Positions 10,236-23,473 of a DNA stretch of 32,000 bases are shown here, piece after piece. A program made the translations under genes and the position numbers. Origin of the DNA: Vermiculatibacterium agrestimuris. GTDB taxonomy: Bacteria; Bacillota; Clostridia; Oscillospirales; Oscillospiraceae. The notes beneath the pieces were generated by a model that did no database searches, had not been told where the DNA came from, and saw nothing but the letters and a program-made list of their open reading frames with translations. Position 1 is the stretch's first letter. Every line of letters starts with the position of its first letter. The stretch spans positions 2,442 through 34,441 of the forward strand of contig NZ_CALPCU010000023.1 of assembly GCF_943193085.1 (NCBI RefSeq). Reading direction: 5' to 3'.

Positions 10236-10724
10236 TTAACACACTACAGAGTCGAAAATTTTAATGAGTTCTAAAACATCAAAGTAATAGTTTTTGATAT
10301 CTATGAACGTAGCTGTCGGAGCTTTTCCATGGGCAAAATCATGTCTATTCTGAACTAACGAATTAGAGGCATCAATAATCTTTTGCTTATTTGGGTGTTT
10401 GTTGACCGCACATTTGAAACTTTTTTGCCACTGCTCATCGAACTTGCCCAATAGGCCACACATCATCTCATACTTTGCACTCATAGAACCTTTTCTGACG
10501 GCTGTATCGAGATATGTATCAATTCGACTGTCTGATAATTTGGAAAAGTAATCAACAACAATCGAACGATACACAAACTCAGCCGTTCCAGAGGCTTTTA
10601 TAAGAGCATAGCAGGTGAGGTATCGTATTTGCTTGGACAAAGGAGGCATATCGGCAATAAGCGCATCAATATCATTGATTTCTGTAGTGCACTCGTCAAT
10701 TAAATCTTGCAATTCACTCTTCAT
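10236..10724 (-). CDS. HEPN-domain protein (RiboL-PSP / MAE_28990-like), predicted RNase effector
   Basis: ATG at 10724 preceded by GGAG, overlapping the upstream gene's end; the track's 10751 start is a GTG. An Rx4H HEPN motif lies near the C-terminus (LVQNRHDFAHG). The protein looks all-helical and the gene is AT-rich. Confidence 0.65.
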   Translation of the reverse strand: MKSELQDLIDECTTEINDIDALIADMPPLSKQIRYLTCYALIKASGTAEFVYRSIVVDYFSKLSDSRIDTYLDTAVRKGSMSAKYEMMCGLLGKFDEQWQKSFKCAVNKHPNKQKIIDASNSLVQNRHDFAHGKAPTATFIDIKNYYFDVLELIKIFDSVVC

Positions 10725-11841
10725 TGATGTCAACTCCAAAGAGAATTGCACCAGCCAACTGTATTCTTTTCCTTATGTTATCGATATCAGTTGTTCGTTT
10801 ACTAACTGCTTCCTTAAACTGTTCATTGCTCAATAGAGTTTGATGTTGCTCCAATGACACTGCGCTAATATCATGCCCTTTTTTGCTTATTAGAAAAGCT
10901 GACACCATGATTGCATCAAAGATAGCTGGATGAAATTTCTTGGAAAATCCATTTTTTGCGAGATTTCTAAAGGCCTTTTCTCCAACTGAACTGTTGACTG
11001 CTTCTACCGTGTGCAAAAACTCAGATCTAAATTTGCTTATATCCTCCGCAGTATCATTTCTGTGATTATCCATAAAGGAGTTCAGTGACTTTTTGAGAGA
11101 AATCTGTTTGGCATCACTCTTTAAGATGTCTTCTGTTTTCATTACAAAGAATCTGAGAATATACTCGAGATCTCGCATTCTGCTGTCTGGTACAACTGCT
11201 CCAAACAGTTTTCTCCATGTTGTGTTTTCGTTGAGTTCGAAAAGCAAGGAATTAAATGTTCCTTGATAGACGCAATTGCGAATTTCCTGAGGAGTGAGGC
11301 TGCGGCCGCTTGTATTAATGCGTTCAAAAATTTGATATAAACTCGTATCATCGTTTTCGGGTTTCTTCTGTTCAAAAACAATTGCATGGATTGTGGTACT
11401 CCGAATTTTTCGTTGGTCATCGGTAGACAATTCAACAAAGGATTTGTTGCGCCACCTTTGGTTTATTTTCTCAGAATTAGATAGTTTAAAAGCTTTTCCA
11501 TCTGCAGAAAAAACACCTCTCTTAACATAATCATAAACGGTCATGATCCTTTGATATCCGTCTACAATCAGCTTCTGACTTCCGGACTGGGCAAGAAAAA
11601 TACTTGGGACTGGAAGCCCCAGTAGGATTGACTCAATAAATCTGCTGGCCTCTGTTTTGTCCCATACATATTTGCGCTGCAGTTCGGGTTTCAGTAATTC
11701 ATCGTCTTCATACATTGAAATAAGCTCTCTAAAAGAAAGATCTGCGCCCCAAGATGAGATGTTAAACAGAGAATCATCTGAGTAATCATCTTCGATTTCG
11801 GACTTAATTTCTTCGATATTGGGATTTTCCTTTGCTTCCAT
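10714..11841 (-). CDS. DUF262 (ParB-like / GmrSD N-terminal-type) domain protein without a DUF1524 nuclease domain
   Basis: Motifs ..LQRKYVWDK..ASRFIESILLGLPVPSIFL...LIVDGYQRI (DGQQR variant) and ..FERINTSGRSLTPQEIRN... ATG 11841 has an AAGGAG RBS. The upstream in-frame extension to 12042 lacks an RBS. Confidence 0.75.
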   Translation of the reverse strand: MEAKENPNIEEIKSEIEDDYSDDSLFNISSWGADLSFRELISMYEDDELLKPELQRKYVWDKTEASRFIESILLGLPVPSIFLAQSGSQKLIVDGYQRIMTVYDYVKRGVFSADGKAFKLSNSEKINQRWRNKSFVELSTDDQRKIRSTTIHAIVFEQKKPENDDTSLYQIFERINTSGRSLTPQEIRNCVYQGTFNSLLFELNENTTWRKLFGAVVPDSRMRDLEYILRFFVMKTEDILKSDAKQISLKKSLNSFMDNHRNDTAEDISKFRSEFLHTVEAVNSSVGEKAFRNLAKNGFSKKFHPAIFDAIMVSAFLISKKGHDISAVSLEQHQTLLSNEQFKEAVSKRTTDIDNIRKRIQLAGAILFGVDINEE

Positions 11842-12214
11842 TGTTGAATATCTCCTTACAAAATCATCTGTTGAAAAGTGCTCTCCTTCAATTTGAATAA
11901 TCCTGGTTTCCTTCATGCCAATCCATTTAGGAATACAAACACAAATTATGGCAGTTTTTTTCCAAAGCAGAATTTCATATATATCTGTTGCCCTATCTTT
12001 GCGAATAGGTGTAATACCATGTACCAAGTATTTCATATGCAATATGCACCTCTCTTTGAGTCAGCATACGCATATAAGAGGCTGTTTATCCTCGCTGTTC
12101 CAAAACTATGAAGTACAAAAGTTTGTTTGCTTCGGTCTCTTTTTGAAATGACAAGCCGTAATAGCCACTTATGACCGGATTATCAAAATCGGCTCCATAA
12201 TGTTTTCATTACCG

Positions 12215-12964: not shown

Positions 12965-14638
12965 TTAGGTAATAATCGCCATAGGCTTAGCATCATCTGA
13001 ACTTTCGGCAGGGGAGATGGCCCCATTCAGCATGACCGCCGGGTCGATGTACCCAATGAACTTATAGTAAATATCTACCTGCTGAGTGATGGCACCGTCA
13101 TCGCTGCGTTCCTTTTCGTGCACTACGATCTTTTCAATAAGCTCATTGAGGATGCGGGCGTTGAGTTCTTTGAGGTCGGTATATTGCCTGACCAGCGGGA
13201 GGAAAGCCTCCACATCGTCATAGATCTGTTCGCTGGCGGAGATGGCTTCCGCCAGCGTTTTTTGTGCTTCCAGAAGGGCAACCCGCTCCTGCTCGTAGCT
13301 GGGCATCATGGACTGATACCGCTCCTCGGTGATCTTTTCCAGCGCCCGGTCCTCATAGAGCTTATTGGAGACCTTCTCCAACTCGCCCAGGCGTTTCTCC
13401 ACTCGTTTGAGCTCCCTCCTTTGTCGCTCGGTGTTCTGCTGTTGCTGGGCTTGCTTGGCGGCCAGGAGCATCTGGGCGTAGTCCAGCTCCGCCACGGTTG
13501 CCCACTGGGCGTTGCGGCGGATATCCTCCAGCACCAGGGTGTTGAGCGTTTTCCAGCCGATGGCGTGGGAGGTGCAACGGCTTTTGCCGTAGTTTTTGTA
13601 GACCCAGCAGGAGAAGCCGGTGTAGCGGCCTCGTTTGCCGTCATAGCTAAGATTGAGGGAAGAGCCGCAGTCGGCGCACTTGACCAGCCCGGCGAAGGGC
13701 TGGACCTCATGGCTGCCGTTCTCCCGCCGTCGGGCTTTCATCATCTGGTGGACGGTGTCCCACAGCTCCTGGGTGACCAGGGGTTCATGGGTGTTCTCGG
13801 TGATGATCCATTCCTCCTCCGGGGCGGGGATGCGAGTCTTGTCAAAGAAACCTTTGAGTTTGGTGCGCCCGAACACGAGCTGCCCCAGGTAGACCCGGTT
13901 ATTGAGGATGGCCCGGATGGAGGTGGCGTGCCAATCATAGGGCTTACGCCAGTACTCGCTTTTGAAGTAGTCGGGGTTATTCTGGTTGAAGTATGCCTGG
14001 GGATTGAGGATGCCACGCTCCCGGAGAATCTTGGTCATCCGCACATAGCCCACGCCCTCGGCGAACATCTGGAAGATGTCCCGCACCACATCGGCGGCGG
14101 GTGGGTCTACGATGAGGTGATGCCGGTCGGCGGGGTCTTTGACATAGCCGAAGGGGGCGTGGCTGCCCAGATACATTCCGGCCTTGGCTCTGGCCCGATG
14201 GGCGGCCTTGGTCTTACTGGAAGCCTGCCGGGCATAGAAGGAGTTGATCACATTGGTAAAGGGGAGCACCAGGCTGTCCAGGCCCTTTTGGGAGTCGATG
14301 TTCTCCGCCAGAGAGAGGAACCGGATGCCCTTTTCCTCAAAGTAGTGCTCGATGTACATCCCCATCTCGGCGTACTCTCGACCGAACCGGGAGAGGTCTT
14401 TGACGATAACCGTGTTGATGCGCCCAGTCTCGATGTCGTCGATCATCCGCTTGAAGTCAGGCCGCTCGAAGTTGGTGCCGCTCCAGCCATCGTCACAGTA
14501 GTACCCACCGATGGTGATGTGCTGTTCCTCACAGTATTGGGTGAGGATGGCCTTTTGGGTCTGGATGCTCCCGGATTCCCCAACGCTGCCGTCGTCCTGA
14601 CTGAGCCGACAGTAGATGGCGGCAATTTCTTTGCTCAT
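12965..14638 (-). CDS. Large serine recombinase (TnpX/TndX-like, with a DUF4368-like C-terminus)
   Basis: ATG 14638 with an AGGAGG RBS. N-terminal resolvase catalytic domain (AAIYCRLSQDD...), recombinase domain, Cys cluster (CADCGSSL...FSCWVYKNYGKSRCTSH), a coiled coil, and a C-terminal ..ELNARILNELIEKIVVHE.. motif. Confidence 0.9.
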   Translation of the reverse strand: MSKEIAAIYCRLSQDDGSVGESGSIQTQKAILTQYCEEQHITIGGYYCDDGWSGTNFERPDFKRMIDDIETGRINTVIVKDLSRFGREYAEMGMYIEHYFEEKGIRFLSLAENIDSQKGLDSLVLPFTNVINSFYARQASSKTKAAHRARAKAGMYLGSHAPFGYVKDPADRHHLIVDPPAADVVRDIFQMFAEGVGYVRMTKILRERGILNPQAYFNQNNPDYFKSEYWRKPYDWHATSIRAILNNRVYLGQLVFGRTKLKGFFDKTRIPAPEEEWIITENTHEPLVTQELWDTVHQMMKARRRENGSHEVQPFAGLVKCADCGSSLNLSYDGKRGRYTGFSCWVYKNYGKSRCTSHAIGWKTLNTLVLEDIRRNAQWATVAELDYAQMLLAAKQAQQQQNTERQRRELKRVEKRLGELEKVSNKLYEDRALEKITEERYQSMMPSYEQERVALLEAQKTLAEAISASEQIYDDVEAFLPLVRQYTDLKELNARILNELIEKIVVHEKERSDDGAITQQVDIYYKFIGYIDPAVMLNGAISPAESSDDAKPMAIIT

Positions 14639-14670
14639 GCTTGATTCCTCCTTAGCCACAGACAATACCC

Positions 14671-14874
14671 CTAATCCTTGCCCAAAGCTATACCAGAACC
14701 CACCAAAGAATCCTTCGTAACTTTGGGCGGAATAGACGAGGTGAGGGAAGCGGTGATGAGGTCGCCCATCTTCTGAAACACATCCCTGCTGCCGCCGTAG
14801 TAGCTGGTGGTGATATACCGAACGCCGCGGATGGTCTGGCTGTGGGCGATCATGCTGTCCTCGAATAGAAACAT
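14671..14874 (-). CDS. Hypothetical 67-aa protein immediately upstream of the recombinase
   Basis: AGGAGG RBS 9 nt upstream of the ATG. GC3-rich codons. It ends 33 nt before the recombinase start. Confidence 0.5.
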   Translation of the reverse strand: MFLFEDSMIAHSQTIRGVRYITTSYYGGSRDVFQKMGDLITASLTSSIPPKVTKDSLVGSGIALGKD

Positions 14875-14889
14875 CGGCTGGTACCTCCT

Positions 14890-15003
14890 TTACATTTTCT
14901 GCTGCCAGGTTTGCTGTTCTTCGTGGTCATCTGCCTTGTGGCCCATAGAAATTTTCTTCTTCCGCTCTTGGGAGAGGGCCTTGCGGTCGTCGTAGCCAGT
15001 CAT
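14890..15003 (-). CDS. Possible 37-aa basic/acidic peptide, or the genuine C-terminal tail of the relaxase (same frame)
   Basis: ATG at 15003 overlaps the TGA of the nested ORF. GC3 bias returns to this frame (MTGYDDRKALSQERKKKISMGHKADDHEEQQTWQQKM). Confidence 0.3.
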   Translation of the reverse strand: MTGYDDRKALSQERKKKISMGHKADDHEEQQTWQQKM

Positions 15004-16170
15004 GGATGCGGCTGGAGCAAGGCGCTGGCTACGCTCCAGAGCATGGCCCAGAGCGGCCACAGAGCGTACAATCCCACCAGGATCGGGATGGCCCACAGCC
15101 ATGCCAGACTGGGTGTGGGCAGGTGTAGCTTCGGCAGAGAAGGCCGCCAGCCTTTCTTCCTCCCAGCCTGTTCCTGTCGCTCCAGCAGCTGATGGATCGT
15201 TGCCGCTTCCTTGGTCAGCGCCTCCGCCTGGGCATGCACTGCCTGCATGGTAGCGAGGCTGTTCTTCAATATGTCGGACTGGCTCGCCGTCAGACGGTAC
15301 AGGGTGCTGAGGATCGCCAACAGGTCGTTCCATTCCTCCCCCATAGGATGTCGCTCTGGCGGCAAGTTCCTCTCCTTCAATTCTTCGATGGAGCATTTCT
15401 GCTCGGATCCTAAACTCACGCTCCATGACCTCCTTTCGGTATTTGTCCTCGTGGAGACGGTTATCCCGGCACTTCTTCCCTTTGGGAGTAGTATAGGTGA
15501 TGGCCTGCCGGGTGGGTTCCCACCGCACCTGGTAGCCCCGCTGTTCCATCTCCCGGATGAAGTCCTCCCGGCGTTTAGCCCTCCTCATACACAGGTCGAT
15601 GGTGTTCATGAGCTGGAATTTCCAACTCTCACCCCGGACCGCCGAGCGGTACTCACCGGGGCGCATCTTCTTATCCTGGACGTGCCTTTTGGGTGACTCC
15701 AGTACTTGCAGACCGTGGGTGCGACATATCTGGTCGCTGATCTGGCGCTGCCGTTGGAGGTCCGCGGCGTTTTGGTGCAGCTTGCGGCCATCCTTCCAGC
15801 TGACGCTGTTGACGATGAGGTGGTTGTGGAGGTGGTCTGCGTCCACATGGGTGGCCACCACCACTTCAAACTCCGGGAACAGCCGTTGGGCCAACTCCAG
15901 CCCGATGGTGTGGACTTCTTCTGGGGTGACGTCTTCCGCTGGAGAGAAGGACTGGACGAACTGATAGAACATCCTGCCATCGGATTTCTGGAACCGCCGC
16001 TTGGTGGTCATCATCTCATCGTAGGCAGACTGGGCAACGCAGTTGTGACCAGTCACCAGTCGGTGGTCTTTCCATGCGGTTTTCTTCTCCTGCGCCGCAT
16101 AGGCCAGCACCCGATGTAGCGAGCTACCGCTTTGAGCCTTGTTTTTGATCGCGGTGAAGGTTGCCATCAT
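14890..16170 (-). CDS. Relaxase/mobilization nuclease (MobA/VirD2 family); the relaxase domain is the first ~290 aa and the C-terminal ~140 codons have a non-coding-like signature
   Basis: 3-His motif HVDADHLHNHLIVNSV and an N-terminal Tyr region. AGGAGG RBS, with an ATGA overlap onto the mobC stop. Downstream of about 15420 the GC3 bias moves to another frame (see the nested ORF). Confidence 0.85.
   Translation of the reverse strand: MMATFTAIKNKAQSGSSLHRVLAYAAQEKKTAWKDHRLVTGHNCVAQSAYDEMMTTKRRFQKSDGRMFYQFVQSFSPAEDVTPEEVHTIGLELAQRLFPEFEVVVATHVDADHLHNHLIVNSVSWKDGRKLHQNAADLQRQRQISDQICRTHGLQVLESPKRHVQDKKMRPGEYRSAVRGESWKFQLMNTIDLCMRRAKRREDFIREMEQRGYQVRWEPTRQAITYTTPKGKKCRDNRLHEDKYRKEVMEREFRIRAEMLHRRIEGEELAARATSYGGGMERPVGDPQHPVPSDGEPVRHIEEQPRYHAGSACPGGGADQGSGNDPSAAGATGTGWEEERLAAFSAEATPAHTQSGMAVGHPDPGGIVRSVAALGHALERSQRLAPAASMTGYDDRKALSQERKKKISMGHKADDHEEQQTWQQKM
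15000..15419 (-). CDS. Nested out-of-frame gene inside the relaxase ORF: 139-aa coiled-coil protein with a C-terminal Trp-rich TM helix (MobB-like position)
   Basis: GTG start with AAGGAGG 9 nt upstream. In sampled stretches GC3 is about 17 of 20 codons in this frame versus about 9 of 20 in the relaxase frame. The sequence is protein-like (..EEWNDLLAILSTLYRLTASQSDILKNSLATMQAVHAQAEAL.., LAWLWAIPILVGLYALWPLWAMLW). Its stop overlaps the next ATG (ATGA). Confidence 0.6.
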   Translation of the reverse strand: MSLGSEQKCSIEELKERNLPPERHPMGEEWNDLLAILSTLYRLTASQSDILKNSLATMQAVHAQAEALTKEAATIHQLLERQEQAGRKKGWRPSLPKLHLPTPSLAWLWAIPILVGLYALWPLWAMLWSVASALLQPHP

Positions 16171-16487
16171 CGCACCTCCTTGGAAAGTTGGCTGATCTGC
16201 TGGTAGAGCTTGGCATAGCCATCCACCAGGTCATCACCTCGGAGGATTTTCAACTTGCCCATGTTGGCCAGAGTGGTGAGCTGGTTTAGGTTCCGCCCCT
16301 GAGCCTTCAACTCGCTCAGCACAGCATCCAGGCCATCCACCCGGACGATCTCTTTGCCCAACGCACAGACGGTCATGTAGTCGGTGACCGTCATCCCGGC
16401 ACCCCGGGCCAGGTGTTGGACGAGACTTTTCATGGTGGGCGTCATTCGGATGGTGACGATCTCGGTCTTGCGTTTTTCTCTGCGCAT
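16167..16487 (-). CDS. mobC: MobC-family relaxosome accessory protein
   Basis: ATG 16487 after GGGGGAGAAAGGA. RHH-like N-terminus (..IVTIRMTPTMKSLVQHLA..) and a MobC motif (..LKAQGRNLNQLTTLAN..). The stop overlaps the relaxase start. Confidence 0.8.
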   Translation of the reverse strand: MRREKRKTEIVTIRMTPTMKSLVQHLARGAGMTVTDYMTVCALGKEIVRVDGLDAVLSELKAQGRNLNQLTTLANMGKLKILRGDDLVDGYAKLYQQISQLSKEVR

Positions 16488-16561
16488 GTTTTTCCTTTCT
16501 CCCCCTCTGGGGGCTGGGGCACGGGGCAGCGCCCCGACCGCATCCGGCGTATAGCCGGGGG

Positions 16562-17619
16562 CTATGCTTGCCTCACCCAAGGGTGAGCGTCCGCATCCCT
16601 GACTTGAGTCCCAGGGGCGATAGGGTCAACGGTTCCGGGGGCTTGTTCAGCGTCACTTTCGGCACGGTGGAGCTCGATGAGCCGCTTGCCGTTACTCCTG
16701 CGGACGATGGCGGTGATGCCTTGTTCCGTAAGTGCCGCAGCGCTTTGGAGGATCTTCCGGGAGACGGTCTTGGGCGTGACGCCCTCCGCACCGTCAGGGT
16801 CGATACGCTTGGCCAACTCGGTGGGAGTGCCGATCCAGCTTGCTTTATTCCGCAGAAATTCAGAGAGGAGAAACACGACCCGCTCCTCCAGAAGCAGTGG
16901 CTGAGTGTAGGAGTCCGATACCAGCTCCCATACGTTTTCGGCGTTCCGCTCCAGCCCCATCTCCCGGTACTCAATGTCCCGGCCTACACAGTAGAGGGTG
17001 GCTCTGCGGCTGCCCCGCCGATCCTCCACCAGCGTGAAGCTGGAATCCACCGCGCCGCTGATGGCGGTGGTGCCGGAGATGCGGCTGAACACATCCTCGG
17101 CGGGTTCCTTGCGTAGATGATGGATGAGCAGGACGGCGATGCCGTGAGCGTCGGCCAGCCGCTTGAGGACAGAGAGGTCTCGGTAGTCATTGGCATAGAG
17201 TTGGTTCCCCGGATCATCTGGAGGGTGTCGATGATGACCAGGACGGTGTCCGGGTGTTCTGCAAGGAAGGCTTTGAGTTGCTGTTCCAGTCCACGGCCCA
17301 GCAGAGCGGCCTCGGTGGAGAAGTGAACGGTGGGCGGCGCGTCCTCGGTAATGTCCAGCAGCCGGTTTTGGATACGGAGCTGGGAGTCCTCCAGACAGAG
17401 ATAGAGGGTAGTGCCCTGCTTCGCTGGCCTGCCCCAGACGCTTTCGCCTTTGGCGACCTGTACGCTGAGCCACAGGGCCAGCCAGGACTTGCCCACCTTG
17501 GGCGACCCGGCCAGGATGTGGAGTCCCTGGGAGAGCAGCGTGTCCACGATAAAGGGCAGCGGCACGAAGGGCTTGGCCATCAGTGTGACGCCGTCAATGG
17601 TGTTGAGCTTTTGATTCAA
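16562..17619 (-). pseudogene. RepA-like AAA (AAA_25-type) ATPase with a C-terminal winged-helix-like region, interrupted by a 1-nt frameshift
   Basis: TTG 17619 with an AGGAGG RBS 7 nt upstream. Walker A is GSPKVGKS. The N-terminal part (frame of ORF 16984..17763) and the C-terminal part (frame of ORF 16562..17473) join at the G4 run (plus-strand CCCC, 17207-17210). One extra G gives ..IIDTLQMIRGNQLYANDYRDL... Total length is 1058 nt, that is 3n+2. Confidence 0.75.
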
Positions 17620-17643
17620 GAGAAAACCTCCTTTGCGATGTGG

Positions 17644-17672
17644 TTGGCATTGGCCTCTGCCTGTGTTAGAAT
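17644..17672 (+). promoter_or_regulatory. Strong sigma-70-type promoter for the + strand operon of the element
   Basis: TTGGCA, a 17-nt spacer, then TGtTAGAAT (extended -10). It lies about 85 nt upstream of the 17757 ATG. Confidence 0.5.
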
Positions 17673-17756
17673 ACAGAGGAGGAATGCTTTTTGAAATCTG
17701 AAAGTGATGTTGGCGATTTTTCAAAAGTTCGCTTGCAGACAAAAAGGAGGGACGAT

Positions 17757-18767
17757 ATGGCATCGGAATATGGGCTGTATCTTTCTCTGCTCCCGGATGG
17801 GCAGATAAAAAGAGACCTCACCGGGTCGGCCGGCAAGGTCCCCTTGGAGGATACAACGATCCAGGATGAGTTGATTTTATTTTCTGAGTTGAACTTTGAG
17901 CCGTATGCTCTGGTGGTAGACCTGGTCCGCAATTGTGCGGGGAGCATTATGGTGCAGGATGAAGGTCATTATGGAGAGGTCGACATGAAGGAGTTTCAGT
18001 TCATGGCGGACACCGTGATCGACCTGGTGACCACCATGGAGAAAGAGTCTCCTCTGTATGGCACGCTGCTTCGCACCCAGATCGAAGATCAGATCACGAC
18101 GGACGATGGAACTGCCATGTATCCGATTCGCACCGGGCAGGAGCTGGTTGCTCTGTTGACCGGAGTGATGCAGTTTCAGTTCGTGGTCAATGAGGTGCTG
18201 CATGACCTTTGCGAGAAGACACCGCTTGAACCAAAGAAGTACGAGGGCCTGTGGGAGATGCCGGTGACGGAGGTCTTAACACTGGAGGGGGATGGTTTGA
18301 CTACACGATACCATTTCCGTTCGGCGGTGGACTACTACCATTTTCTTCTTCTGCATTTTGTGGCGGACAAGCCAAATGTGTCTCTGTGCCAGTGCTGCGG
18401 CAGATATTTTATTCCCAAGACGAAAAAGAAAACGCTGTACTGTGACCGTATTCTGAAGGATGGCAAGACTTGTAAGGAGTGGGGGCCGATCCTGAAGCAC
18501 AAGCTGGCTGCTCGGAGGAACGAGGTCATCGAGGCTTTTGACCGGGCCAAGCGGAAAATGTACAAGCGCTACGAGCGGGCGGCAAATAAGATCAACCAGA
18601 AGCCCTCGGAGAAGGATCTGAGCTACGCTGAATACTATGAGTGGCTGGACAGGGCAACCAAGGCGAGAGATGATTATTTGGAGGGGAAAATCACAGTGGA
18701 AGACTGTTTGCGACAAATTGGGGAAGAAAAAGATGAAGATGGAAACTTTATCGAACTTATGGTATAA
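17757..18767 (+). CDS. Hypothetical 336-aa protein with a Cys cluster (CQCCGRYF...YCDR...TCKEW) and a basic helical C-terminus
   Basis: AAAAGGAGGG RBS 6 nt upstream of the ATG. Composition (about 55% GC in a sampled line) resembles the element core. It is divergent from the ATPase/mob operon. Confidence 0.7.
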   Translation: MASEYGLYLSLLPDGQIKRDLTGSAGKVPLEDTTIQDELILFSELNFEPYALVVDLVRNCAGSIMVQDEGHYGEVDMKEFQFMADTVIDLVTTMEKESPLYGTLLRTQIEDQITTDDGTAMYPIRTGQELVALLTGVMQFQFVVNEVLHDLCEKTPLEPKKYEGLWEMPVTEVLTLEGDGLTTRYHFRSAVDYYHFLLLHFVADKPNVSLCQCCGRYFIPKTKKKTLYCDRILKDGKTCKEWGPILKHKLAARRNEVIEAFDRAKRKMYKRYERAANKINQKPSEKDLSYAEYYEWLDRATKARDDYLEGKITVEDCLRQIGEEKDEDGNFIELMV

Positions 18768-18856
18768 TAGCTTGGCAAGTAGAATTACAAAATATGAACC
18801 TGCACCATTGATGCGGAGGGTCAAATCTTTGCAATGAAAAATTGGGGGACGAGTTG

Positions 18857-21800
18857 ATGGATAACAAAAAATTGGATCGTTGGGCTGAACTGCTTTTAGA
18901 TACGGGTAAGCGCAACAATCTGATCAACTTTAGAGATACAAAGGCATCCACTGTTGAAGTTGTTGCTCCGGCCCCTGATACCATATGGGAGAAGGCCAAT
19001 GGTTCTGGGGACTTGGAGGTCTATGATCCTGGCCTCATTACCTTTGACGATGAGGACGAACAGCGTTCTCCTGAAGACGGCGAAAGAGAGACAAAACTAA
19101 GCCGTGAAGATTATCTTCAAACCTACAGCCCTATGTTGAAAAAAGCAAGCCAAATGTTGCTATACAGCCTTGGACCAAGCCCCATTCGCACTTTACAGAA
19201 TATTGACAAGAAGGCTCAATCTGCTATTGAGGAAACTGGCGTTAATGTCGCATATATGGCATTTGGCTTTATTCACTGGAAGGAGAGCAATTCTTCTCAA
19301 TATGAATATAGGGCACCTATTCTTTTGGCGCCGGTTCAATTTAGCAGGGAAACTGCCATTGCACCCTACCATATTGTTGTATCTTCCGATGAAATAGCAG
19401 TAAACCCCACATTCTCCTATAGGATGAACGCTGAACACGGGATTCGCCTTCCAGAGTATGAGGACGAGGGCCTTGACAGCTATTTGGATAAGGTTGCAGA
19501 GCTGGTCGGAAAATTGGGCTGGGCTGTGACGAGAGAGTGTAAAATCGGGCTGTTTTCCTTCCTGAAAATGAATATGTATCGCGATCTGAAGGATCATGCA
19601 GCTGCCATCTTGAAGAATAGAAATATTAGGACCTTGCTTGGCGAGCAGGTTGAGCGTGACAACGCCGAAAGTAGTTTTGATGAAGAAGCACTGGACTATG
19701 GAGGTGCCTTGATCCAACTTCATAGTGTCGTCGATGCGGACTCCAGCCAAATCGAGGCCATCGAGATGGCGAAATCTGGAGTGAGCTTTGTCTTGCAGGG
19801 CCCTCCGGGGACTGGAAAAAGCCAAACTATCACAAATATTATTGCTGAGTGCTTGAACGACGGGAAGAAGGTTTTGTTCGTTTCTGAAAAGCAGGCTGCT
19901 TTAACTGTTGTGTATGACAAGCTGAGGCAGGCTGGCTTGAATGATTTCTGCCTGGAACTTCATAGTTATAAGGCAAATCGGAAAGGCGTAATTGCCGAGC
20001 TGTGCCGTACATTACGCCTGGACAAAACAACCGTTTCAACCAAGGCAGATGAAGAAGTTACGACCAAAGAGAAGGCACAAAGGCAACTTGACCTTTATGC
20101 CGAGGAGCTACATAAGCAAAGACCGGGAATCGAAAGAAGCCTTTATCAGCTCTATGAGGAACACTCCGCCTGTCGACATGTCCCGGAACTCGAATTTCAG
20201 GTTCCTGCGATTGAGGACAAGGGTGCAAACTATTTAACTTCGGCGATTGAATTTTTGGAGCAGTATGTAGATTATCTCCCTTCAGTGGGCTATGACTACC
20301 ACAAAAACCCGTGGTATGGATATAAGAACCAAGATACCTCCTACCAAACCACAATTCAAGTTAAGAGTGATTTGCAGGAATCGATAAAGTTTTTTCAAAC
20401 TCTCATTTTGCTTTCTGACGAACTGGCCACCAAGTATGGTGTAGCATTGGAAGGGATTGACAGCGCACGATATTGGCGAGATTTCTTGTCATTTGTAGTG
20501 ACCTCAGATATCATTACACCTGCATTCTTGAAAGACCCCAATCTGGTAGATGCCCTGCGCAGGATGGCGGCCTTAAGTGCAGAGATCCACGAGATCCAAA
20601 CGAGTCTTGATGCTGTATATGGTCAGGACATTTACCAAATTGATGGAGCGGAATACTGTAAAAAGCTCACAACACAGTTTGGTAGTTTCTTTTCTCGCCT
20701 ATTCAATCAGGAATATCGGCAGACAGTTGCGAATCTCCAGGTTTGCAAGCGGAGCGATGGCAAACTGTCATATCAGGATGCCGTAGCCCTTACCCGGAAA
20801 CTTTCGGAATATCAGGAAAAGACCCAAGCGTTTGAAGCACTTGAGGTCTCGGCCAAGGGAGGCCTGGGACCGGGATATACCGGCCTTCAGGGAGACTGGG
20901 CGCACGTTGAAGAGCAACTTGACCAGATGGGGGCCATCATAAATGGAAAGCACGACTATGGTCGGTTGGCAGAGCTTTCTCTGTCGGAATTTCAGGCCGA
21001 ACAGCCGACTTTTGAAAATCTTGCGAAGAGGCTTTCTGCTTGCCTTGATCTGTTTGGCGACTGGTATGATCGGCTTGCGGCAGCGTTTGATAACGAGATT
21101 TTTGATTTGCGTACTGTCCAGGATCAAGAGGCTCTTGCCAAGCTCGAAGCCTGTCACTGCGATGCCGATAAAATTGATAACTGGTGTAGATTCCGCACGT
21201 TGTTGGCTCAACTGCGAGATGTTGGATTGCTGTCCTTTGTTGACTATGTGATCTCGCAAAATTATGAGGCGAAGAATATGGTCACCGCATATAAGCGAGC
21301 ATTTTTGCATCAATGGATCGACTGCATTATTGCCACTACACCTGCCTTGGCTGATTTCAATCGGGTGATTCAGGACAGAGCTGTGGTTACATTCTCACAA
21401 AAAGACACTACGCAGTTCGACATTAGCAAAGCACAAATCCGCCAGAAGCTCTCAGCCCAAAGACCGTCTCTTGATATGGTTTCATCTGGTAGTGCTGTTT
21501 CTATTTTGCTCCGTGAGGGAGAGAAGAAAAGACGGCAAAAGAATATCCGTACCTTGCTGGCGGAGACCGGGGAGCTTATCCAGATCATAAAGCCTTGCTT
21601 TATGATGTCGCCATTGAGCGTCAGTACGTTTCTGGATCCAGATATCATACATTTTGATACAGTGATTTTTGACGAGGCGTCGCAGATATTCCCCCAGGAT
21701 GCGGTGGGCGCTATATATCGCGCTAAACAGCTCATCGTGGTGGGCGATTCCAAGCAAATGCCGCCCAGCAACTTTTTCTCTGCAACTGTGGAGGATGACT

Positions 21801-23473
21801 CACCAGATGAAGAGATTGGCGATGTGACGGATTTTGAATCCATCCTTGATATGTGCTCCACCACTATGCCGCAAATGCGCTTGCGGTGGCATTATCGTAG
21901 CCGGTATGAGCAGCTGATTGCTTTCTCTAACCGCAATTTTTATGACGGGGATTTGGTTACATTTCCCTCCGCAACAGCAGATACACATGGCGTGGGTGTA
22001 GACTATTACCATGTGGATGGAATATTTGACCGCAAAAGTCATACAAACCGAAAGGAAGCAGAATTTGTTGTTGATCTCATTTTTAAGCATATTCAAGAGT
22101 ATCCGGGCAGAAGCCTTGGCGTAGTGGCGTTCAGCGTAGCACAGCAGGAACTGATCGATAACCTCCTGTCAAAGCGACGTCAAGAAAATCCGGATATGGA
22201 GGGCTTTTTCAAAGGAGAGCGCAAGGAACCATTTTTTATCAAAAACCTTGAAACGGTGCAGGGCGATGAACGGGATACTATCATATTCAGCGTTGCATAT
22301 GGCATTGACTCTCAAGGGCGCCTGCTCCATAATTTTGGCCCTCTGAATCGGGTCGGCGGTGAACGCCGACTGAATGTTGCGGTCACCCGAGCAAAGTGCA
22401 ATGTGCAGTTGGTATCCTCCATGCATTATACGGACATTGACCTGAGCCGTACATCGTCAACTGGAGTTACATTGTTGCGGGCGTATCTGGACTATGCCGA
22501 GAATGGCACTATTGCCTTGGAGCGAGCGGTCTCAATCAGCCCTTTTGAACAATTTGATTCCGAGTTTGAAATGGAAGTTTGCGATTTCCTGCGGGACAAT
22601 GGATTTGAAGTAGATATGCAGGTCGGTTGTTCTGGATTCCGCATAGATCTTGGTTTACGTCGGTCAGGAAGTTCGGATTATGTCTTGGCGATTGAATGTG
22701 ATGGAGCTACCTATCATTCATCAAAAAATGCCCGTGATCGGGATCGCCTCCGTCAAGAGATCTTGGAGCGTATGGGCTGGAAATTTTACCGCATTTGGTC
22801 CACGGACTGGTTCAAAAACAAGAGAGTGGAAAAGGAGCGCTTGTTGGGGGCGGCAAAACAGGCGGTAAAGGCTCCCACCTCAGTAGTCCAGCCTATGCTG
22901 GATATAGAAGAATCCGCCGCTGAGATTTTTGAGACCGTATCAACTGCCAATGATTTTAAGTTTCAACAATACAAAATAGCCGATATCCCCGCTCTATCCA
23001 AACGGTATTTACCAAATAACTTTAAGGGTATGGTGAAGGCCATTTTGGAAATAGAGGCCCCTCTTTCAGAGGATCTGCTTTTAAAGCGCACGGTTATATA
23101 CTTTGGCCGAGAGAAAGTGACGAGCGTTGTTCAACGGACCTACGAGCAACTAATGCAAGGGTGTCGTCGGGATGGGATCATTCGTCGGGATGGCTTTTTA
23201 TATCTGGAGGGGCAGAGTGAGTGCCCGTTCCGAACACCTTCTAACGATTTGAAGCGTGACATCAAAGATATCTGCTTGGAGGAGTTAGCTTCTGGGCTGC
23301 TCGAACTGCTTCGTCAAAATGTAACGGCAGATAAGACTGGGCTCTATCACGCCTTTGCGGGGCAGTGCGGTTGCAGTCGGGTTGGCAAAGCTATTAATGA
23401 GCGGTTTGACGATGCACTTGGACTGTTAAAGGACAAAATAAATGTGGACGGAATTATGCTTTCGATTAAATAG
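18857..23473 (+). CDS. DUF4011 / SF1 (Upf1/DNA2-like) helicase / Vsr-MTES_1575-like endonuclease / DUF3320 giant protein (Hhe-like candidate defence gene)
   Basis: 1538 aa. N-terminal DUF4011-like region (..LLDTGKRNNLINF..). Walker A GPPGTGKSQTI and motif II VIFDEASQ. Also WHYRSR, VQGDERD and RLNVAVTRAK. A C-terminal nuclease-like block follows (..GFRIDLGL...YVLAIECDGATYHSSKNARDRDRLRQEILERMGWKFYRIWSTDW..), then a DUF3320-like tail. A sampled line gives about 42% GC. Confidence 0.85.
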   Translation: MDNKKLDRWAELLLDTGKRNNLINFRDTKASTVEVVAPAPDTIWEKANGSGDLEVYDPGLITFDDEDEQRSPEDGERETKLSREDYLQTYSPMLKKASQMLLYSLGPSPIRTLQNIDKKAQSAIEETGVNVAYMAFGFIHWKESNSSQYEYRAPILLAPVQFSRETAIAPYHIVVSSDEIAVNPTFSYRMNAEHGIRLPEYEDEGLDSYLDKVAELVGKLGWAVTRECKIGLFSFLKMNMYRDLKDHAAAILKNRNIRTLLGEQVERDNAESSFDEEALDYGGALIQLHSVVDADSSQIEAIEMAKSGVSFVLQGPPGTGKSQTITNIIAECLNDGKKVLFVSEKQAALTVVYDKLRQAGLNDFCLELHSYKANRKGVIAELCRTLRLDKTTVSTKADEEVTTKEKAQRQLDLYAEELHKQRPGIERSLYQLYEEHSACRHVPELEFQVPAIEDKGANYLTSAIEFLEQYVDYLPSVGYDYHKNPWYGYKNQDTSYQTTIQVKSDLQESIKFFQTLILLSDELATKYGVALEGIDSARYWRDFLSFVVTSDIITPAFLKDPNLVDALRRMAALSAEIHEIQTSLDAVYGQDIYQIDGAEYCKKLTTQFGSFFSRLFNQEYRQTVANLQVCKRSDGKLSYQDAVALTRKLSEYQEKTQAFEALEVSAKGGLGPGYTGLQGDWAHVEEQLDQMGAIINGKHDYGRLAELSLSEFQAEQPTFENLAKRLSACLDLFGDWYDRLAAAFDNEIFDLRTVQDQEALAKLEACHCDADKIDNWCRFRTLLAQLRDVGLLSFVDYVISQNYEAKNMVTAYKRAFLHQWIDCIIATTPALADFNRVIQDRAVVTFSQKDTTQFDISKAQIRQKLSAQRPSLDMVSSGSAVSILLREGEKKRRQKNIRTLLAETGELIQIIKPCFMMSPLSVSTFLDPDIIHFDTVIFDEASQIFPQDAVGAIYRAKQLIVVGDSKQMPPSNFFSATVEDDSPDEEIGDVTDFESILDMCSTTMPQMRLRWHYRSRYEQLIAFSNRNFYDGDLVTFPSATADTHGVGVDYYHVDGIFDRKSHTNRKEAEFVVDLIFKHIQEYPGRSLGVVAFSVAQQELIDNLLSKRRQENPDMEGFFKGERKEPFFIKNLETVQGDERDTIIFSVAYGIDSQGRLLHNFGPLNRVGGERRLNVAVTRAKCNVQLVSSMHYTDIDLSRTSSTGVTLLRAYLDYAENGTIALERAVSISPFEQFDSEFEMEVCDFLRDNGFEVDMQVGCSGFRIDLGLRRSGSSDYVLAIECDGATYHSSKNARDRDRLRQEILERMGWKFYRIWSTDWFKNKRVEKERLLGAAKQAVKAPTSVVQPMLDIEESAAEIFETVSTANDFKFQQYKIADIPALSKRYLPNNFKGMVKAILEIEAPLSEDLLLKRTVIYFGREKVTSVVQRTYEQLMQGCRRDGIIRRDGFLYLEGQSECPFRTPSNDLKRDIKDICLEELASGLLELLRQNVTADKTGLYHAFAGQCGCSRVGKAINERFDDALGLLKDKINVDGIMLSIK

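Follow-up and report, generated by a model that had tools for sequence, protein, structure and literature searches.

Genes for small mobilization proteins written in a second reading frame within a relaxase gene are already known from ColE1, pC221, and RSF1010. The RSF1010 MobB protein, of about 137 amino acids (aa), is membrane-associated. Its gene lies inside mobA/repB in another frame (PMC2200642; PMC5572225), and the title of a 2007 paper by Parker and Meyer (cited in PMC3297438) has the MobB of R1162 as required for the type IV transport signals of the relaxase. In ColE1-type plasmids, two of the genes mobB, mobC, and mobD sit entirely inside mobA and the third partly so (PMC5935869); in the RefSeq annotation of ColE1 itself, an “MbeB family” and an “MbeD family” gene are found inside mbeA. 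The plasmid pC221 of Staphylococcus aureus carries mobCAB (PMC4993578). What about elements that are integrated rather than carried on plasmids? A review of integrative mobilizable elements (PMC5704250) mentions neither overlapping genes nor MobB. Here, we describe such an arrangement in a putative integrative mobilizable element of Vermiculatibacterium agrestimuris, a member of the Oscillospiraceae. The DNA analyzed is a stretch of 32,000 nucleotides (nt) from contig NZ_CALPCU010000023.1 (positions 2,442 to 34,441), hereafter called the window, and coordinates are those of the window.

The host gene is a relaxase open reading frame (ORF) of 426 aa, taken from the list of ORFs at 14890..16170 on the minus strand, which reads through the whole overlap to a conserved C terminus. 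Inside it, in the +1 frame, is an ORF of 139 aa (15000..15419, minus strand) that begins with GTG and encodes a candidate accessory protein of the MobB/MbeB type, making the whole of the shorter stretch putatively dual coding. The comparative evidence indicates that positions 15000 to 15419 encode two proteins, each under selection, and that the nested one has its own initiation site. It is very probable that both frames are translated and selected. Only a little less firmly, the nested ORF is probably a real accessory gene of the mobB/mbeB kind. The initial annotation, made from the sequence of the window, had raised overprinting of the mobB-in-mobA type, and this idea is supported by a conserved Shine-Dalgarno (SD) sequence and start codon, the nested architecture, suppression of synonymous change, and frame-specific substitutions.

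A start site within relaxase codons

How would ribosomes find a gene placed in this way? Those that start at 16170 would make the 426-aa relaxase, while others would be recruited by an SD sequence lying in relaxase codons K246-E247 to the GTG at 15419, in the +1 frame. The internal SD, AAGGAGG (15429..15435, minus strand), falls within codons K246-E247-V248, exactly 9 nt before the GTG. The distance between the relaxase start and the GTG is 751 nt (751 mod 3 = 1, hence the +1 frame), and the ORF spans relaxase codons 251 to 390, where its TGA overlaps a relaxase-frame ATG as ATGA (15000-15003). The ORF, its SD, and the 9-nt spacing had all been given in the initial annotation, and both coordinates and sequence proved correct.

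The codon signature shifts between the frames as well. The G+C content of third codon positions (GC3) in the relaxase frame, taken in 30-codon windows, is 0.70 to 0.87 up to about codon 240, drops to 0.33 to 0.43 over codons 250 to 330, and returns to about 0.7 over roughly the final 40 codons. Over the same codons 250 to 330, the G+C content at relaxase position 1, which is nested position 3, climbs to 0.77 to 0.90. These values agree with what had been noticed by eye, namely, that the relaxase ORF stays open for 426 codons while losing its coding signature near 15420 and that beyond this point GC3 is higher in the nested frame than in the relaxase frame.

Related loci allow the start site to be examined more widely. 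Eighty genomic loci were fetched from contigs representing one genome per species, and, with the window counted in, 62 loci carry a full-length relaxase of about 420 to 480 aa. These 62 form 8 clusters below 60% identity and come from Oscillospiraceae, Ruminococcus, Faecalibacterium, Flavonifractor, Lawsonibacter, Butyricicoccus, and Angelakisella. They share the initiation context AAGGAG, 9 nt, NTG AGY, with identical spacing in all loci. The relaxase residue at the nested start position is variable (R, L, H, Y, C, V, N, or D), while the codon for it ends in T in 60 of the 62 loci, has A, G, or T but never C before that T, and is followed by the G of an invariant Glu codon. In those 60 loci, the nested start is therefore always ATG, GTG, or TTG, a pattern indicating that it is the start codon, and not the relaxase residue, that is selected here. 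Synonymous choice also favors the SD: Lys246 is AAG in 61 of 62 loci against a background of 59%, and Glu247 is GAG in 55 of 59 against 70%. In most loci, a nested-frame stop lies 1 to 5 codons upstream of the nested start, which argues for internal, independent initiation rather than frameshifting. Since both the SD and the N-terminal motif of the product (described below) are conserved, the GTG at 15419 is taken as the real nested start. One protein found in the searches (P0122) is a 114-aa version of the nested ORF (15000-15344, minus strand), 100% identical to it, that presumably starts at the internal ATG for Met26.

The nested protein

From its N terminus onward, the predicted product would comprise the short conserved motif EELKxRN, a helical stretch some 60 residues long, a linker of basic character, and a C-terminal membrane anchor. 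Across loci, the nested ORFs share an initial MS, the E-L-K-x-R-N motif at residues 12 to 18, a QAGKK..R.S.LP stretch, and a hydrophobic C terminus. The motif, in full E-E-L-K-x-R-N (15366..15386, minus strand), is the most conserved part, with all three codon positions constrained; E13, L14, and N18 are invariant in an alignment of nested proteins (A3). An AlphaFold2 model built from 44 sequences contains a short helix at residues 11 to 17, a 61-residue helix at 27 to 87 (15159..15341, minus strand; pLDDT of about 80 to 87), an unstructured basic linker, and a transmembrane (TM) helix at 105 to 135 (15015..15107, minus strand), modeled as helices 105 to 119 and 121 to 135. Its mean pLDDT is 73.7 and its pTM 0.26. 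The long helix shares its DNA with a variable, G/P/A/D-rich linker of the relaxase. The TM segment, LAWLWAIPILVGLYALWPL, reaches a 19-residue Kyte-Doolittle score of 1.78, and the earlier description of a helix followed by a Trp-rich TM segment is thus borne out.

A 19-mer scoring at least 1.6 on the same scale lies 1 to 17 residues from the C-terminal end in 59 of 61 nested ORFs, with a median net charge of +2 before it. The hydrophobic end persists even in the Ruminococcus clade, where the nested sequence no longer aligns. In shape, the model corresponds to a tail-anchored membrane protein whose helical rod would lie in the cytoplasm.

Comparison with pC221, ColE1, and RSF1010

Among the closest described systems is that of pC221. 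Its MobA is 34% identical to the window relaxase (E 9e-31), the pC221 motif HTDKDHYHNH aligning with HVDADHLHNH, and in both cases a MobC-type gene is located upstream of the relaxase gene. pC221 mobB starts inside mobA, in the +1 frame, at codon 234, which occupies the same column as window codon 251 in a three-way alignment. The start contexts are AAAGGGG, 9 to 10 nt, ATG AGC in pC221 and AAGGAGG, 9 nt, GTG AGT in the window. Each product begins with a helical part that leads into hydrophobic membrane segments, and in each a weakly matching ELK(K/R)(R/Q)N motif can be read near the N terminus. There are differences too. In pC221 the overlap is partial, since mobA stops about 82 codons into it and mobB continues past that point, whereas the window relaxase frame spans the whole nested gene and another 37 or so codons to its conserved C terminus. 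pC221 MobB is also longer (221 to 230 aa), has apparently several hydrophobic segments, judging from its translation, and belongs to DUF334 (PF03904, matched at 1.4e-64), while the nested protein has one TM segment. Finally, pC221 is a plasmid, and the window carries an integrated element with a serine recombinase.

ColE1 mbeB offers the fuller overlap. Like the nested ORF, it lies wholly within a relaxase gene of the PF03432 type, in the +1 frame, starting just after the nuclease domain. Its start falls at MbeA codon 230 in the context of an AAAGGAG-like SD, 9 nt, and ATG AGC; in MbeB, too, a helical N-terminal part precedes a TM segment; and where it overlaps mbeB, the MbeA frame reads as low-complexity sequence rich in G, R, E, and D, resembling the linker of the window relaxase. 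In contrast, MbeA is a HEN-motif relaxase that aligns only marginally even with pC221 MobA (E 0.002, at motif III), and BLASTP of MbeA against the window relaxase gave no alignment. ColE1 also has a second nested gene, mbeD, of which no equivalent was found in the window relaxase, and it is a plasmid of Proteobacteria.

RSF1010 mobB had been named as the precedent by the initial annotation. Likened here from the literature, it remains a fair analogue, being a small accessory mobilization gene within a relaxase gene in a different frame, although its relaxase is of another family (MOBQ) and is fused to a primase. As the closest precedent it gives way to pC221 mobB and ColE1 mbeB, which share the +1 frame and the arrangement of SD, 9 or 10 nt, NTG, and AGY.

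An accessory role for the nested product is inferred because its position, frame, start context, and architecture match those of pC221 mobB and ColE1 mbeB, with RSF1010 mobB as an analogue. The nested gene would thus encode a membrane-anchored relaxosome accessory factor of the MobB/MbeB type. What might such a protein do? By analogy, including that with the R1162 MobB mentioned above, it could tether the complex of relaxase and DNA either to the membrane or to a helper conjugative element's coupling protein, perhaps by way of the C-terminal relaxase part that the shared DNA specifies. This role is put forward tentatively and at somewhat under an even chance. That the nested gene is the evolutionary counterpart of mobB/mbeB is moderately likely, and such kinship would link integrated elements of Gram-positive bacteria with the classical mobilization modules of ColE1 and pC221. 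On present alignments, it is best described as a positional counterpart of pC221 mobB and not as a demonstrated member of the MbeB or DUF334 family. In either case, the locus is a further example of a known arrangement and a useful correction to annotation rather than a new kind of mechanism.

Several results weigh against this kinship. Searches of Pfam, NCBIfam, and PDB sequences with the nested protein returned only generic coiled-coil noise, leaving it with no Pfam or NCBIfam family. DUF334 did not match it and is not among the families listed for 29 of its relatives; the same holds, even at E values up to 10, for PF04837 (MbeB_N), which ColE1 MbeB matches at 3.6e-22. Aligned as a single sequence to pC221 MobB/DUF334 with hhalign, the nested protein gave an E value of 0.23, which is not significant, and a profile-profile comparison with 18 MobB homologues gave 0.038 with a probability of 1.4%, over 11 columns only (SIEELKERN/ELNELKRQN). 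The hhalign result for ColE1 MbeB (E 0.16) involved an unrelated stretch. Moreover, the ColE1 start site matches in context and in distance from motif III, without significant alignment there, and this is a resemblance only.

The short motif E-L-K-(K/E/R)-(R/Q)-(N/A) can be found in all three proteins, at 15366-15386 (minus strand) in the window, at residues 37 to 45 of pC221 MobB, and at residues 12 to 18 of ColE1 MbeB (KLKERA), though the match is not significant. Several of the pC221 MobB residues are invariant in 18 homologues, and the distance of the motif from the start is similar in the nested protein and MbeB.

Could the start site in relaxase codons (K-E/G-x-x-x-[H/Y/R]-E, read as SD-N9-NTG-AGY) be a single ancient invention? 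This is possible but doubtful. If true, it would be shared by Proteobacteria (in ColE1-type plasmids), staphylococci (in pC221-type plasmids), and gut Oscillospirales (in a very large family of integrated mobilizable elements). The overprinted protein would have diverged past sequence recognition, with the start site, the frame, the helix-plus-anchor architecture, and ELKxxN persisting, and the pair would be among the oldest and most widespread overlapping gene pairs of bacteria, systematically unannotated outside ColE1.

A real nested gene need not encode a relaxosome component. Its product may instead serve in entry exclusion or immunity, in the manner of ColE1 MbeD/Exc, or regulate excision or transfer. 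The mobD gene of ColE1-type plasmids (mbeD in ColE1) also lies inside the relaxase gene, and its product is a putative entry-exclusion protein (PMC5935869); the ColE1 gene is annotated as encoding an “MbeD family mobilization/exclusion protein.” A small tail-anchored membrane protein fits many roles, and no homology fixes the function of this one. The match in position and start context is nonetheless to mobB/mbeB, mbeD starting further downstream, and the translation of mbeD has, by eye, no obvious hydrophobic stretch like that of the nested protein. An exclusion or regulatory function is accordingly judged unlikely, if still to be reckoned with, and a mobB/mbeB-like accessory role is preferred.

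Conservation and dual constraint

Is the nested frame a gene at all? A length of open frame is of little help in deciding. An ORF of 508 aa lies open antisense to the serine recombinase gene of the same element (13118-14644, plus strand), a pure shadow ORF of GC3-rich coding DNA, and it shows that ORF length alone means little in this window. Long open frames are frequent wherever GC3 is high, and the nested ORF might likewise be a noncoding shadow whose apparent conservation stems from coding by the relaxase; its failure to match any known protein family would fit. Conservation across loci and the pattern of substitution are more telling.

An ORF of 135 to 173 aa in the +1 frame is present at the equivalent place in 61 of the 62 full-length loci, starting at the identical nucleotide in 60 and ending 33 to 58 codons ahead of the relaxase stop. 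An alignment of homologous loci had been suggested at the outset as a check, and it shows both frames open in 61 of 62, with neither a stop near 15420 nor conservation of the relaxase frame alone. The exception (L009, 4749-5201) has one internal stop in the nested ORF and an intact relaxase. A protein search with the nested product found 67 clusters at 90% identity, 114 to 143 aa long and down to 46% identical, mostly on short contigs, and a nested-protein profile, run against 1.84 billion representative proteins, recovered 177 clusters at 50% identity. In 72,556 plasmids searched with tblastn, the nested protein had no match, and the family therefore seems confined to integrated elements and metagenome-assembled genomes. 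Set beside 2281 relaxase proteins (E value of at most 1e-5), the mere 67 clusters for the nested product point to an annotation gap: across a large family of mobilizable elements of gut Clostridia, annotation lacks a conserved small-membrane-protein gene.

How often would a frame stay open by chance? Synonymous codons were shuffled among sites with the same amino acid, a conservative permutation because the codon composition of the dually constrained stretch is kept. With coding confined to the nested frame, the relaxase frame has a median chance of 0.02 per locus of staying open; with coding confined to the relaxase frame, the median for the nested frame is 0.06. Taking the largest p value from each of the 8 clusters, Fisher combined p values are 2e-8 for an open relaxase frame and 1.7e-3 for an open nested frame.

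Substitutions were counted, pairwise and without correction for phylogeny, in 28 disjoint pairs of loci that are 77 to 97% identical in the relaxase N terminus. In that N terminus (codons 1 to 245), differences per site at relaxase positions 1, 2, and 3 are 0.06, 0.05, and 0.25, and synonymous differences at identical residues are 0.25. In the overlap (codons 252 to 389), the three positions give 0.23, 0.16, and 0.16, and in the tail (codons 392 to 426) they give 0.15, 0.13, and 0.31, with synonymous differences of 0.24. The fastest position in the overlap is thus the first of the relaxase codon, equivalent to the third of the nested codon; coding by the relaxase alone would produce the opposite. 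Synonymous differences at identical relaxase residues drop 2.5-fold in the overlap, from 0.25 to 0.097.

In and around the overlap, 8-codon windows reveal a finer pattern. All three positions change slowly at codons 241 to 264, where the SD, the nested start, and EELKxRN are located (0.09, 0.05, and 0.06 at codons 257 to 264). The nested-frame pattern appears at codons 265 to 280, 313 to 336, and 345 to 368. The stretch encoding the long helix shows it over parts of its length, its middle (codons 281 to 312) having high rates at all three positions. Codons 337 to 344 are again slow throughout, and from codon 385 the relaxase-frame pattern resumes, with rates of 0.05 to 0.14, 0.08 to 0.11, and 0.27 to 0.31 at codons 393 to 416. 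By these measures, constraint is a mosaic in which segments are constrained by the nested protein, by the relaxase, or by both.

The clearest site of dual constraint is at relaxase codons 334 to 337 (15160..15171, minus strand), where relaxase T-G-W-E coincides with nested Q-A-G-(K/R) and rates are low at all positions. Over the 62 loci, the W is invariant and the T, G, and E are nearly so. Thr334 is ACA in 57 of 60 loci against a background of 16%, a rare codon that preserves the nested Gln, while the nested Ala tolerates Val or Asp through synonymous changes of the Gly codon. Together, the substitution mosaic and the codon choice here indicate that both proteins are selected and that the nested one is evolving quickly. 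The locus is thus a clean natural example of overprinting, in which a fast-evolving linker hosts the helix of another protein and short islands are constrained in both frames.

These data have their own counterweights. The permutation p value for an open nested frame is not small at several loci and reaches 0.95; the 62 loci are phylogenetically related, and binomial p values overstate their independence; and selection on the nested protein is weak, with rates of 0.16 at its positions 1 and 2 against 0.23 at its position 3. Even so, a noncoding shadow would not be expected to invert the substitution periodicity, suppress synonymous change in the relaxase, hold an SD and a start codon by synonymous choices while the relaxase residue varies, fix a rare Thr codon, or keep a C-terminal TM helix in 59 of 61 ORFs, even where sequences no longer align. 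A by-product of relaxase coding is very improbable as an explanation, and two coding frames are preferred.

The relaxase and its C terminus

If the nested frame codes, does the relaxase frame also do so across the overlap? The N-terminal part of the relaxase is a MobA/VirD2-like nuclease domain (PF03432; aa 24 to 154, 15709..16101, minus strand; E 1.1e-37, 129.7 bits against a cutoff of 24.6). It contains the His motif HVDADHLHNH: in an alignment of 23 sequences (A1), H108, D110, H113, H115, and H117 are invariant, the histidine-triad motif HxDxxHxHxH is kept, and Y24 is nearly invariant. A sequence search of PDB with the relaxase gave no match at an E value of at most 0.01. Residues 260 to 333 are variable, with many indels, and rich in G, P, A, and D, in keeping with the earlier remark that the frame becomes low-complexity G/P/A-rich sequence past about 15420. 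From its composition and variability, this linker is probably disordered. Beyond it come the kept motifs TGWExER, LGxxLE, and D-x-K-x-L..E..KKIAxGHKxDDHE. As judged from the alignments, the relaxase is made up of a nuclease domain, a variable linker, and a conserved C-terminal part.

Relaxases of 338 to 341 aa from Lachnospiraceae, Anaerotignum, Anaerovorax, and others are informative here. They lack the nested ORF along with its SD and start, and in them EGW, LGKNLES, and TDRK..KKLAAGHK adjoin the nuclease domain directly. Being conserved, and carried by these short relatives even in the absence of a nested ORF, the motifs mark the C-terminal part as the relaxase's own and as ancestral. The short-relaxase loci without a nested ORF are L041, L042, L049 to L053, L055, and L056. 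Set against the 340-aa relaxases, the 85-aa linker may be an insertion, but pC221 and ColE1 share the nested start, and loss in the short relaxases is equally possible.

The last segment (aa 390 to 426 plus stop; DRKAL..ERKKKI..GHKADDHEEQ; 14890..15002, minus strand) had been described as a separate downstream ORF that re-enters the relaxase frame. The ATGA overlap and the GC3 of about 0.7 are there, but an independent ORF is not: of 61 loci, just 6 have a relaxase-frame ATG that overlaps or adjoins the nested stop, and around half lack any start codon of that frame in the vicinity. Because of this and the motifs shared with the short relatives, the final 37 codons are read as the relaxase's own conserved C terminus and not as a third ORF.

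The initial annotation had offered, as the alternative to overprinting, a relaxase that lost its stop, such that only the nested frame is real past codon 250 and the relaxase normally ends there. Both GC3 and the dominant substitution periodicity of the overlap do follow the nested frame, the relaxase-frame residues 270 to 330 are G/P/A-rich and poorly conserved, and one homologue (P0112) is 260 aa long. Yet the relaxase search, which returned 2281 proteins at an E value of at most 1e-5, includes more than 100 homologues at 58 to 82% identity, nearly all of 405 to 444 aa with 91 to 100% coverage, the exceptions in length being P0112 and one of 356 aa. The frame is open to about 420 to 480 aa in 62 loci of 8 clades in spite of the low chance of this at each locus, the C-terminal motifs are conserved and lie contiguous with the nuclease domain in the short relatives, and the tail shows the relaxase-frame substitution pattern while most loci have no ATG of its own there. 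A lost stop is scarcely credible on this evidence, and the full-length relaxase is retained. Two further loci, L027 and L064, have in-frame stops within the relaxase ORF and are, like L009, decayed copies.

Equally hard to credit is a frameshift, whether programmed on the ribosome or a sequencing or mutational indel, that joins the nuclease domain to the helix and TM segment in one membrane-anchored fusion: 3 of the 177 nested-profile clusters are fusions of 345 to 395 aa (P0254, P0278, and P0292), but no two of these change frame at the same point, a pattern that separate indels or assembly errors would produce, the nested-frame stops upstream of most nested starts leave hardly any distance in which to shift, SD and start codon alike are conserved, the relaxase frame past the switch carries conserved motifs, and no conserved slippery sequence was seen on reading the aligned start contexts, a formal search not having been made. 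All three fusions contain the nuclease domain and the nested helix; P0254 and P0278 include the TM helix, and P0292 ends before it. They are probably indels or assembly errors, though they could be natural variants.

The mobilizable element

The relaxase gene, with the gene nested in it, is part of an apparent operon on the minus strand. First comes a NikA/MobC-like relaxosome accessory gene (16167..16580; PF21983, E 2.1e-17; PF05713, E 3.5e-4; NCBIfam MobA, NF041264, 2.1e-9), whose stop overlaps the relaxase start by 4 nt. After the relaxase gene there follow a 67-aa ORF (14671..14874) with no Pfam or NCBIfam match and a gene for a large serine recombinase with DUF4368 (12965..14665; PF00239, PF07508, PF13408, and PF14287), the putative integrase of the element. 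Genes for an AAA_25 protein and a DUF6076 protein are found nearby, and the flanks of the element are host-like, with genes for ETF, acyl-CoA dehydrogenase, SLH proteins, and an ABC transporter. The window ORFs scanned include no match to a coupling protein or a type IV secretion system, and the element is therefore regarded as an integrative mobilizable element that borrows the transfer machinery of a helper. Models of how such elements, here with defense genes on board, are mobilized would be missing a probable relaxosome component.

The AAA_25 (RepA/DnaB-like) gene beside the mobC-like gene is split over two overlapping frames (16562-17763, minus strand). One ORF (16984..17763) is the N-terminal part of AAA_25, and the other (16562..17473, HHLRK...), without a Pfam match, looks like the rest of the protein. 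The gene could be a frameshifted pseudogene, or the split could stem from a programmed shift or an error in sequencing. Likely antiphage cargo is located at 10236-12042 (minus strand) and 18842-23473 (plus strand), encoding a RiboL-PSP HEPN protein, a GmrSD_N protein, and a protein of 1543 aa. The last of these has DUF4011, SF1 helicase, and MTES_1575 nuclease domains, and its GC3 of 0.49 is much below that of its neighbors.

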